Shown: positions 3,394 through 17,925 of the stretch, piece by piece
Position numbering within the stretch: position 1 is the first letter of the stretch
Layout of the letters: each line of letters begins with the position of its first letter
Assembly (NCBI RefSeq): GCF_013122565.1
Contig: NZ_CP053258.1
Length of the DNA stretch: 64,000 bases
Direction: 5' to 3' (one strand)
Source of the DNA: Escherichia coli
GTDB taxonomy: Bacteria; Pseudomonadota; Gammaproteobacteria; Enterobacterales; Enterobacteriaceae
Made by a program: the position numbers and the translations under genes
Notes under the pieces: generated by a model
What the model was told of the DNA's origin: nothing
What the model saw: the letters and a program-made list of their open reading frames with translations, nothing else
Database searches by the model: none

Positions 3394-4779
3394 ATGCTGA
3401 CATTCATTGAACTCCTTATTGGGGTTGTGGTTATTGTGGGTGTAGCTCGCTACATCATTAAAGGGTATTCCGCCACTGGTGTGTTATTTGTCGGTGGCCT
3501 GTTATTGCTGATTATCAGTGCCATTATGGGGCACAAAGTGTTACCGTCCAGCCAGGCTTCAACAGGCTACAGCGCCACGGATATCGTTGAATACGTTAAA
3601 ATATTGCTAATGAGCCGCGGCGGCGACCTCGGCATGATGATTATGATGCTGTGTGGCTTTGCCGCTTACATGACCCATATCGGCGCGAATGATATGGTGG
3701 TCAAGCTGGCGTCAAAACCATTGCAGTATATTAACTCCCCTTACCTGCTGATGATTGCCGCCTATTTTGTTGCCTGTCTGATGTCTTTGGCCGTCTCTTC
3801 CGCAACCGGTCTGGGCGTTTTGCTGATGGCTACTCTGTTTCCGGTGATGGTAAACGTTGGTATCAGTCGTGGCGCAGCAGCTGCCATTTGTGCCTCCCCG
3901 GCGGCGATTATTCTCGCACCGACTTCAGGGGATGTGGTGCTGGCGGCACAGGCTTCCGAAATGTCGCTGATTGACTTCGCCTTCAAAACGACGCTGCCTA
4001 TCTCAATTGCTGCAATTATCGGCATGGCGATCGCCCACTTCTTCTGGCAACGTTATCTGGATAAAAAAGAGCACATTTCTCATGAAATGTTAGATGTCAG
4101 TGAAATCACCACCACTGCTCCTGCGTTTTATGCCATTTTGCCGTTCACGCCGATCATCGGTGTACTGATTTTTGACGGTAAATGGGGTCCGCAATTACAC
4201 ATCATCACTATTCTGGTGATTTGTATGCTGATTGCCTCCATTCTGGAGTTTCTCCGCAGCTTTAATACCCAGAAAGTTTTCTCTGGTCTGGAAGTGGCTT
4301 ATCGCGGGATGGCAGATGCGTTTGCTAACGTGGTGATGCTGCTGGTTGCCGCTGGGGTATTCGCTCAGGGGCTTAGCACCATCGGCTTTATTCAAAGTCT
4401 GATTTCTATCGCTACCTCGTTTGGTTCGGCGAGTATCATCCTGATGCTGGTATTGGTGATTCTGACAATGCTGGCGGCAGTCACGACCGGTTCAGGCAAT
4501 GCGCCGTTTTATGCGTTTGTTGAGATGATCCCGAAACTGGCGCACTCTTCCGGCATTAACCCGGCGTATTTGACTATCCCGATGCTGCAGGCGTCAAACC
4601 TGGGCCGTACCCTTTCGCCCGTTTCTGGCGTAGTCGTTGCGGTTGCCGGGATGGCGAAAATCTCACCATTTGAAGTCGTAAAACGCACCTCGGTGCCGGT
4701 GCTTGTTGGGCTGGTGATTGTTATCGTTGCTACAGAGCTGATGGTGCCAGGAACGGCAGCAGCGGTCACAGGCAAGTAA
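3394..4779 (+). CDS. dcuC: anaerobic C4-dicarboxylate transporter DcuC (461 aa)
   Basis: Track ORF 461 aa, polytopic membrane protein; ATG at 3394 preceded by a ggagacagg SD-like sequence. Confidence 0.95.
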   Translation: MLTFIELLIGVVVIVGVARYIIKGYSATGVLFVGGLLLLIISAIMGHKVLPSSQASTGYSATDIVEYVKILLMSRGGDLGMMIMMLCGFAAYMTHIGANDMVVKLASKPLQYINSPYLLMIAAYFVACLMSLAVSSATGLGVLLMATLFPVMVNVGISRGAAAAICASPAAIILAPTSGDVVLAAQASEMSLIDFAFKTTLPISIAAIIGMAIAHFFWQRYLDKKEHISHEMLDVSEITTTAPAFYAILPFTPIIGVLIFDGKWGPQLHIITILVICMLIASILEFLRSFNTQKVFSGLEVAYRGMADAFANVVMLLVAAGVFAQGLSTIGFIQSLISIATSFGSASIILMLVLVILTMLAAVTTGSGNAPFYAFVEMIPKLAHSSGINPAYLTIPMLQASNLGRTLSPVSGVVVAVAGMAKISPFEVVKRTSVPVLVGLVIVIVATELMVPGTAAAVTGK

Positions 4780-15167: not shown

Positions 15168-15313
15168 TCATCTGATTTACAAAACACGCTAATTCGTCTC
15201 CCATAAACCATGACGATTAAGATTTATACATAATGCGCTGCATTGAGGAATTCCCTGAATGTGACGCAAATCACTTCAAAGAGTGAGCAACAGTCAGTAT
15301 CATCATGTGAGTT

Positions 15314-15348
15314 AAACCCTCGCCGCCTGACGGTGAGGGTTTTCTTTT
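15314..15348 (+). terminator. intrinsic terminator downstream of rna
   Basis: aaaccctcgccg-cctga-cggtgagggtttt-cttttgg hairpin plus U-tract (coordinates approximate). Confidence 0.6.
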
Positions 15349-15396
15349 GGGTATGTTTATCTGCGACACTCGCAGTACCGACGACATGGAGTAAAA

Positions 15397-15807
15397 ATGT
15401 CCAGACCAACTATCATCATTAACGACCTGGATGCCGAACGCATCGATATTCTGCTGGAGCAACCCGCCTATGCTGGTTTGCCAATCGCCGACGCGTTAAA
15501 CGCAGAGTTGGATCGCGCCCAAATGTGTTCGCCAGAAGAGATGCCACACGACGTGGTGACAATGAACAGCCGGGTTAAATTCCGCAATCTTAGCGATGGC
15601 GAAGTGCGTGTGCGCACGCTGGTGTATCCGGCAAAAATGACCGATAGCAATACTCAGCTTTCCGTTATGGCTCCGGTAGGTGCCGCACTGCTGGGACTGC
15701 GCGTTGGCGATTCCATTCACTGGGAACTTCCGGGCGGCGTTGCAACCCACCTTGAAGTGCTGGAACTCGAATACCAGCCAGAAGCTGCTGGCGACTACCT
15801 GCTTTAA
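15397..15807 (+). CDS. rnk: regulator of nucleoside diphosphate kinase Rnk (GreA/GreB-like, 136 aa)
   Basis: Track ORF 136 aa ([22 protein letters not shown]...). Confidence 0.92.
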
Positions 15808-15840
15808 TCCCATCTGCACAAGCGATAACTCGCTTTGCCC

Positions 15841-15862
15841 AGAGGATGCACTCGCATCCTCT
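15841..15862 (+). terminator. hairpin downstream of rnk (weak terminator candidate, no strong U-tract)
   Basis: agaggatgc-actc-gcatcctct inverted repeat about 35 nt after the rnk stop. Confidence 0.35.
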
Positions 15863-16037
15863 TTACGCAAAATCAGCAATTTTTCCTGGTTCTCACTGTT
15901 CACTTTTGCTGCAAAATTATTCCGTTTCGTTTGTGGGAATAACCATGGCAGAAGCATTTTACATCCTGATAGGATTCCTGATTATGGCGGCGATTATCGT
16001 CATGGCTGTCCTTTACCTCGAAAACCACTCCTGACGA

Positions 16038-17276
16038 TCATATTGTTCCCCCCGGCATCGCATTCACCAGACCTGAAACTGCCTTCTGCGCTGCCTCTGC
16101 GCTTTGTGCACCGGGTACCAGAATCACCTTACGGCACTCCTCTTCACGTTTTTCGAAAATCTCATATCCCCGGGCGGCCTCTTCAAACGGCATATAGTGG
16201 GTAACAATTTCTTCTGGTTTCAGTAATCCTTTCTCAATTAACGGTAATAATTCTCCCAGCCATGCGTGAACGTGGGTCTGTCCCATTTTAAACGTCAACC
16301 CTTTATCAAAGGCGTCGCCAAACAGGAAACCGTGAATAAATCCAGCGTAGACGCCCGGCACGCTAACAATGCCGCCACGCCTGACCGCCGCAATACACTG
16401 GCGCAACGCTTTACCGCTGCTGCCCTCCAGTTTCAGGTTAGTCAGCACCGTTTCCGTGGTGCTGCCTTTCGCTTCAAAACCGACGGCGTCTATTACTGCA
16501 TCCACGCCCCGGTGACCTGCCGTTTGTTCAATAATTGACTGTGCCGGATCGCTATCTTCATCAAAATTAATCGGGATCGCGCCGTAGCGGTCAGCGGCGA
16601 AACGCAAGCGGTAGGGATGATGATCAACAACAAAAATCTGTTCCGCACCGAGCAACCGTGCACAGGCGATTGTCAACAATCCCACAGGACCGGCACCATA
16701 GACTGCAACGCTTGAACCTTGTTGGATCTGCGCATTTTTTGCTGCCTGCCATGCCGTTGGCAGAATATCAGAAAGGAAAAGGGCTTTATCATCTGAAAGC
16801 AAAGGCGGTACTTTAAACGGCCCCACATTCCCTTTAGGGACGCGGACATATTCCGCCTGCCCGCCAGGAACGCCACCATACAGGTGACTATAACCAAACA
16901 ATGCCGCGGGAGCTGGTATCTGTTTTTTATTGAGCGCAGCGCCTTTACCCGCATTGGTATTTTCGCAGGCGGCATATTGCTGCAATCGACAGAAAAAACA
17001 GTCGCCACAAGCAATGACGAACGGAATTACCACCCGGTCGCCTTTTTGCAAATTTTTTACGTCCTTTCCGGTTTCAACGACTTCCCCCATAAATTCATGA
17101 CCAAAAATATCGCCATGTTTAACCTGGGGTATTTTGCCTCGATAAAGGTGGAGGTCAGAGCCACAGATCGCCGTTGCCGTAATACGCAGAATTATATCAT
17201 CTGCCTGTTCAATGCCCGGATCGGGAACATTTTCTACCTGAACGTGATGTGGGCCGTGATAAGTCAATGCTTTCAT
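16038..17276 (-). CDS. ybdR: zinc-type alcohol dehydrogenase-like oxidoreductase (412 aa)
   Basis: Track ORF 412 aa with MDR zinc-ADH motifs ([21 protein letters not shown]). Confidence 0.9.
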
Positions 17277-17496: not shown

Positions 17497-17925
17497 ATGT
17501 ATAAGACAATCATTATGCCAGTTGATGTATTTGAAATGGAATTGAGCGACAAAGCTGTTCGCCACGCTGAATTCCTCGCCCAGGATGACGGAGTTATTCA
17601 TCTACTTCACGTACTACCCGGGTCAGCCAGCCTGAGCCTGCACCGTTTTGCCGCTGATGTGCGTCGTTTTGAAGAGCATCTGCAACATGAAGCAGAAGAA
17701 CGTCTGCAAACGATGGTCAGCCACTTCACCATCGATCCTTCCCGCATTAAACAACATGTCCGTTTTGGTAGTGTGCGGGATGAAGTCAATGAGTTGGCAG
17801 AAGAACTGGGTGCTGATGTTGTTGTTATCGGTTCTCGCAACCCATCGATTTCGACCCATCTGTTAGGTTCTAACGCCTCGAGCGTGATCCGCCACGCCAA
17901 TCTGCCGGTGCTGGTTGTGCGTTAA
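17497..17925 (+). CDS. uspG: universal stress protein G (142 aa)
   Basis: Track ORF 142 aa with UspA-fold ending [30 protein letters not shown]. Confidence 0.92.

Follow-up and report, generated by a model that had tools for sequence, protein, structure and literature searches.

What is encoded by the short, hydrophobic open reading frame (ORF) that lies between rnk and ybdR on the Escherichia coli chromosome, and what might its product do? The frame is found in a 64,000-nucleotide stretch of E. coli DNA (contig NZ_CP053258.1), referred to here as the window, from which a sequence-only reading had proposed that an ATG at 15945 opens 29 codons for a translated, single-pass membrane protein, squeezed between two convergent genes and not recognised as a named gene. 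Its position, identity, conservation and relatives are described below, followed by the readings of its function that these results permit.

Identity and expression of the reading frame

The frame is read on the forward strand from an ATG at 15945-15947 to a TGA at 16032-16034 (Table 1), as had been suggested, and its surroundings are likewise arranged as described: rnk and ybdR converge, the stop codon of the frame and that of ybdR on the opposite strand (16038-16040) are only 3 nt apart (16035-16037), and the purine-rich gggaa placed about 9 nt upstream is present, with its first G 10 nt from the ATG. Such a block (GGGGA, GGAA or GGAG) occupies the equivalent position in most of 36 orthologous loci, being weak in a few, and lies 5-8 nt 5' of the ATG in nearly all orthologues. 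The encoded peptide is strongly hydrophobic, with a GRAVY of 1.69 and a best 19-residue Kyte-Doolittle window of 2.97. The ORF list of the window places many chance frames of 20-60 codons around it, and a six-frame scan with a hidden Markov model (HMM) of the peptide family detected no second copy in the window.

Table 1. Features in and around the rnk-uspG interval, in coordinates of the window
Feature	Coordinates	Strand	Remarks
rnk (nucleoside diphosphate kinase regulator)	15397..15807	+	upstream neighbour; synteny anchor for yldA in all species
rnk intrinsic-terminator-like hairpin	15841..15862	+	AGAGGATGC-actc-GCATCCTCT, then only TT(T)
dimorphic segment of E. coli	15869..17479	.	1611-bp cassette comprising yldA allele A and ybdR
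candidate weak sigma-70 promoter for yldA	15890..15918	+	identified by eye; only partly conserved between species
Shine-Dalgarno-like GGGAA	15935..15939	+	5-nt spacer to the yldA ATG; ATG 10 nt from the first G
yldA coding sequence	15945..16034	+	29 codons plus TGA; small membrane protein YldA, MAEAFYILIGFLIMAAIIVMAVLYLENHS
ybdR (zinc-dependent alcohol dehydrogenase, 412-aa ORF)	16038..17276	-	convergent with yldA
uspG (universal stress protein G)	17497..17925	+	same strand as yldA; next gene after yldA wherever ybdR is absent

This ORF is yldA (b4734), a real and translated gene of E. coli. Its peptide is identical to that of MG1655 b4734 (643330-643419, between ybdR and rnk), and over 281 nt the only difference between the window and MG1655 is synonymous, TTC/TTT at Phe11. 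The NCBIfam model NF041476, 'small membrane protein YldA', is matched at 57.9 bits against an equivalog cut-off of 45, with residues 1-29 aligned to model positions 1-29, and the Pfam family PF23689, 'YldA-like', at 70.3 bits over model positions 1-29. When positions 15700-16300 were compared by megablast with 5,426 complete E. coli genomes, the RefSeq label beneath the match in the genomes listed, between rnk and ybdR, was 'yldA: small membrane protein YldA'.

The identical 29-residue sequence is listed in Table 1 of VanOrsdel et al. 2018 (Proteomics 18:1700064, PMC6001520), in which YldA is one of 36 small proteins seen in LB cultures by immunoblotting of a chromosomal C-terminal SPA tag. 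A Ribo-seq study from 2023 places yldA among 'previously known sORFs' and found that acid stress did not change it significantly (PMC10746267, supplement). Discovery, naming and the demonstration of expression all date from 2018, and the gene is part of the standard annotation; it is already known, and its existence is not new. The sequence-only reading was thus mistaken in regarding the frame as nameless; its description of a translated, small single-pass membrane protein is supported by the annotation, by the NF041476 and PF23689 matches and by detection of the SPA-tagged protein. Within the searchable literature, no experimental work on the function of YldA turned up, and SamT, a newly named kinase-modulating peptide, was considered as a possible synonym of YldA and rejected, being YdgU.

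Transcription signals and the upstream region

Lying 3' of a hairpin that resembles the intrinsic terminator of rnk, yldA needs either a promoter of its own or read-through from upstream. Both arms of the hairpin stem are conserved in 36/36 yldA-bearing loci, with a variable loop and a T tail of only 2-3 nt; the structure was not called by a consensus terminator scan, owing to its short T tract. The short tail suggests that termination is leaky, with transcripts continuing into yldA. A second small hairpin, AAGCGA-taac-TCGCTT, is present at 15820-15835. Further downstream, it is possible that yldA is driven by a weak sigma-70 promoter composed of a -35 hexamer TTCTCA (15890-15895), a 17-nt spacer and a -10 hexamer AAAATT (15913-15918), preceded by a TGc (15910-12) that would constitute an extended -10; the consensus promoter scan reported none upstream of yldA. 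Transcription of the gene would then probably arise by read-through of the weak rnk terminator, from its own weak promoter, or from both.

An Rfam scan of the yldA region gave no match, and hence no small RNA (sRNA) or antitoxin RNA, the only match being the rnk leader further upstream. This known cis-regulatory leader (rnk_leader, RF01771) was found upstream of rnk at about 15300-15351, where the end of the match was set by the search range, with 63.4 bits against a gathering score of 50; it coincides with a terminator-like hairpin at 15314-15342.

A longer frame of 62 codons, running from an ATG at 15846 to 16034, was also considered. It was rejected on two grounds: this ATG is part of the stem of the rnk terminator, and in other species the frame is closed by stop codons 8-14 codons 5' of the conserved ATG. 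The 62-residue 'hypothetical protein' of some E. coli records is an over-extended call of yldA, and a protein-homologue search using the 62-residue in-frame extension returned only over-long, mis-annotated versions, from a collection that apparently has no 29-residue entries. A 43-residue 'small membrane protein YldA [Vibrio cholerae]' on a contig of 564 nt aligns with E. coli YldA at 100% identity across the matched part (47% of the 62-residue query), and probably represents contamination or a mislabelled assembly.

Conservation and selection

The sequence-only reading had looked to conservation of the frame and to a substitution bias across the Enterobacteriaceae as a check, and both are found. 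The rnk neighbourhoods of 80 Enterobacteriaceae species, one genome per GTDB species, were searched in all stop-to-stop frames with an iterated HMM built from the E. coli alleles. An orthologue is present in 34 of the 80 species, giving 36 loci when two E. coli references are included, and is sharply separated from the background, first-pass scores being at least 28 bits for the orthologues and at most 11 bits for all other ORFs. Every orthologue starts with ATG, has exactly 29 codons and lies on the same strand as rnk, approximately 140 nt 3' of it.

Pooled Nei-Gojobori estimates in the yldA frame are 0.21 for dN/dS and 0.37 for pN/pS, whereas dN/dS in the two alternative frames of the alignment is 1.32 and 1.44. 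With synonymous changes approaching saturation (pS 0.62), the dN/dS value is approximate, but the frame specificity is unambiguous. Variation is likewise concentrated at third codon positions, the entropy of which is 1.18 bits, compared with 0.66 at first and 0.48 at second positions. The invariant residues are M1, E3, A21, V22, L25 and E26, the last conserved in 36 of 36 sequences, and these are specified by several synonymous codons, A21, for instance, by GCC, GCA, GCG and GCT. These patterns indicate that the amino acid sequence is under purifying selection where the gene is kept. The family consensus can be written M-[SN]-E-I-L-x-I-T-L-[IV]-[FY]-L-I-x-x-A-I-I-V-x-A-V-L-Y-L-E-R-H-W, from which the K-12 allele is the least typical member, ending in ENHS where most members have ERHW.

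Distribution, losses and dimorphism in E. coli

All four combinations of presence and absence of yldA and ybdR are seen between rnk and uspG. No yldA is present near rnk in 46 of the 80 species, among them Salmonella, the Citrobacter freundii group, Kluyvera and most Kosakonia, and ybdR is absent from about 20 of the 34 yldA-bearing species. Alignment of loci that lack an intact yldA revealed independent deletions in two Enterobacter loci: in E. cloacae DSM 26481 only the 3' end of the gene is left, amounting to approximately the ten last codons (…AAVLSLKRHR*; comparison locus L033, about 4480-4520), and in E. hormaechei the 5' untranslated region and Shine-Dalgarno block are left and the coding sequence is gone (L040, about 4480-4550). 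The gene is therefore dispensable, being absent from 46/80 species and having been independently deleted in Enterobacter.

E. coli itself is dimorphic at this site. Cassette A, carrying yldA allele A and ybdR in 1611 bp as in the window, is found in 3600 genomes, about two thirds, and cassette B, a 277 bp segment in which allele B of yldA (MSEALGITAFYIFIAAIIVAAVLYLEQRW) stands alone and is followed directly by uspG, in 1818, about one third (4170-4446 in comparison locus L002). In genomes without ybdR, uspG follows yldA on the same strand after approximately 124 nt. The two cassettes have no similarity detectable by blastn, whereas their flanks are 97-99% identical; the peptides encoded by alleles A and B are identical at 15 of 29 positions (52%) and both retain the core AAIIVxAVLYLE. 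Both types of cassette are also present within Citrobacter, and this distribution indicates either an old polymorphism or exchange between genera. In E. coli strain HS-02 (NZ_CP172818.1), where only uspG is annotated, 68% of the B-type cassette is matched at 92.9% identity; this strain may harbour a third cassette variant or have lost yldA.

Similarity between YldA and YoaI

YldA looks like a distant homologue of YoaI, judging from profile comparisons in both directions. The NCBIfam model for YoaI, NF041475, matches all six YldA sequences tested (that of K-12 and five variants) at 21-32 bits, with E values from 1e-7 to 2.5e-4, and always in the same register, YldA residues 3-29 aligning with YoaI residues 8-34. 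The peptide of the window scores 22.5 bits. As all YldA scores are below the 45-bit equivalog cut-off, YldA is not a YoaI orthologue but a member of a separate family, and its partner may differ. None of 20 shuffled YldA sequences matched the model, whether fully shuffled (10) or shuffled only within the transmembrane (TM) helix with the termini kept (10). In the opposite direction, E. coli YoaI obtains 18.9 bits against the YldA HMM, a value reached by 0/5000 full and 0/5000 TM-interior shuffles.

Comparison by hhalign of the YldA family alignment with an alignment of 23 YoaI representatives gave a probability of 96.8% (P 2.7e-10) and a score of 39.7 over 27 columns; among controls, 200 shuffles of the interior columns had a mean score of 13.5 (sd 3.1) and a maximum of 25.5, and 200 shuffles of all columns had a maximum of 17.8. 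In this register S26, V27 and E31 of YoaI fall on A21, V22 and E26 of YldA, which are invariant, and a shared motif, E-x-L-x-I-[TS]-x-x-F...[IL]-V-x-[AS]-V-L-x-L-E-[RK], can be drawn. The three YoaI residues are themselves invariant (Vellappan et al. 2025, PMC11429745), and according to the same study YoaI needs E31, a residue of its cytoplasmic tail, both to bind EnvZ and to activate EnvZ-OmpR targets; the C-terminus of YoaI is predicted to be cytoplasmic (PMC11429745).

The link between the two proteins is recorded neither in Pfam nor in NCBIfam, the latter having separate models for them, YoaI matched no Pfam family even at an E value of 10, and no paper making the connection was found. Whereas the conserved residues of YoaI fall on a single face of the helix (P = 0.011), those of YldA do not (conservation moment P = 0.72), and conservation at individual positions is only weakly correlated between the families (r = 0.23), which cautions against over-reading the homology.

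Proposed function and alternative explanations

The predicted layout of YldA is a 3-residue N-terminal stub with the invariant Glu3, one TM helix at about residues 4-25, and a 4-residue tail that opens with the invariant Glu26 and usually continues Arg-His-Trp. It is proposed tentatively, at somewhat short of an even chance, that YldA inserts into the inner membrane with its N-terminus outside and its C-terminus inside and acts by docking onto a larger inner-membrane protein, most likely a histidine kinase. This topology is suggested by the register common to YldA and YoaI and by the Arg/His tail of most orthologues, although the positive-inside argument is weak for the K-12 allele, as its ENHS tail has neither Arg nor Trp. 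Docking would involve the half of the helix that lies in the inner leaflet and is conserved (A16-I-I-V-x-A-V-L-Y-L25), along with the juxtamembrane Glu26; the partner, the activity of which YldA would tune in response to envelope stress or stress of an osmotic type, would most likely be a histidine kinase, EnvZ or another. The stress context has circumstantial support: uspG is the usual downstream neighbour, and both yldA and ybdR are among the genes raised by NaF in anaerobiosis, alongside psp, phoPQ/rstAB and osmotic-stress genes (PMC10100675). Although ybdR-yldA is listed as a convergent excludon, with overlapping transcripts, in MG1655 RNA-seq data (PMC12288877), this overlap cannot be the conserved function, as ybdR is absent from most yldA loci. 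In a more specific form, YldA and YoaI could be paralogues in one previously unlinked family of ~30-residue kinase-modulating peptides, in which Glu26 of YldA would bind and tune EnvZ or another histidine kinase; this is considered possible, if less probable than docking as such.

The main competitor to a kinase modulator is a reading in which YldA serves a transporter or respiratory complex, as an accessory subunit or as a stabiliser. AcrZ, KdpF, CydX and MgtS are small proteins with such roles, each having a single TM helix and fewer than 50 residues. YldA is alike in anatomy, having one helix in fewer than 50 residues with its conservation concentrated in that helix; its variable presence would suit a non-essential role, and its failure to reach the equivalog threshold for YoaI makes it plausible that the partner has changed. 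Against this, the only homologue detectable is a kinase activator, the glutamate critical to its function is invariant in YldA, and a transporter or oxidase operon adjoins yldA in 0/36 loci. An accessory role appears possible and on balance unlikely. Much less credible is that YldA is a type I toxin-like peptide, damaging membranes and held in check by antisense transcription from ybdR. In its favour, the peptide is short and very hydrophobic, one orthologue has a very weak match to the type I toxin YonT (NCBIfam, 10.7 bits, E 0.44), and the transcripts of yldA and ybdR do overlap in K-12 (PMC12288877); yet the supposed antisense partner is not conserved, being missing from about 20 of 34 yldA species and from one in three E. 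coli genomes, the Rfam scan shows neither an sRNA nor an antitoxin in the region, tagged YldA accumulates from its native locus in normal growth in LB (PMC6001520), and its homologue YoaI is a signalling modulator.

Two further explanations would deny the peptide a function altogether. One holds that the transcription or translation of yldA is itself a cis-regulatory element, of excludon or leader type, for ybdR or uspG. The arrangement of the genes makes this conceivable, given that the stops of yldA and ybdR are 3 nt apart in a documented convergent excludon (PMC12288877) and that uspG follows yldA at ~124 nt on the same strand in ybdR-less genomes. However, selection is evident on the amino acids, with a dN/dS of 0.21 and several synonymous codons at invariant residues; yldA is conserved whichever gene is downstream, and the two E. 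coli alleles keep the peptide core despite wholly different DNA, so that this explanation is considered highly improbable. The other, that yldA is a chance intergenic ORF rather than a gene, could appeal to the many frames of 20-60 codons that arise nearby by chance and to the absence of a strong promoter from the consensus scan, and has next to no likelihood: frame, length and start are kept in 34 species with frame-specific substitutions, curated family models exist (NF041476, PF23689), and detection by immunoblot is published (PMC6001520). The conservation pattern and the published tagging have in effect already refuted it.

Docking of YldA onto a larger inner-membrane protein, most likely a histidine kinase, remains the preferred reading of its function, and the new lead is the homology with YoaI, including retention of the critical glutamate, from which a specific and cheap hypothesis of kinase binding follows. 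Were it true, alleles A and B of E. coli, which are deeply divergent, the former accompanied by ybdR and the latter not, could confer different signalling set-points on different lineages, and the A/B dimorphism, together with the repeated losses in Enterobacter, offers natural variants for tests of kinase binding.

Comparison with known small membrane proteins

A number of small inner-membrane proteins bind histidine kinases, including MgrB and SafA, which bind PhoQ, SamT/YdgU, which binds RstB, and MzrA, which binds EnvZ (PMC13425233). Kinase modulators of this group are mostly shorter than 50 residues, MzrA, at 127, being longer. The NCBIfam scan detected no sequence similarity between YldA and MgrB, SafA, SamT or MzrA, the regulation and partners of which are known, where those of YldA are at most deduced.

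YoaI differs from YldA in its different locus, in a 5-residue N-terminal extension, MNDQM, and in a Ser-rich stretch, both of which YldA lacks. It binds and activates the sensor kinase EnvZ (PMC11429745), a connection that is proposed for YldA by homology. In MG1655, yeaK and yoaI are tail-to-tail with 0 nt between them (comparison locus L083, 5575-6183), and this pair is also listed as a convergent excludon, parallel to yldA/ybdR. The two systems are alike in anatomy and in gene arrangement: YoaI (b1788, 34 residues) consists, like YldA, of a single TM helix, and its gene, like yldA, is placed tail-to-tail with its neighbour, the stop codons being 0-3 nt apart.
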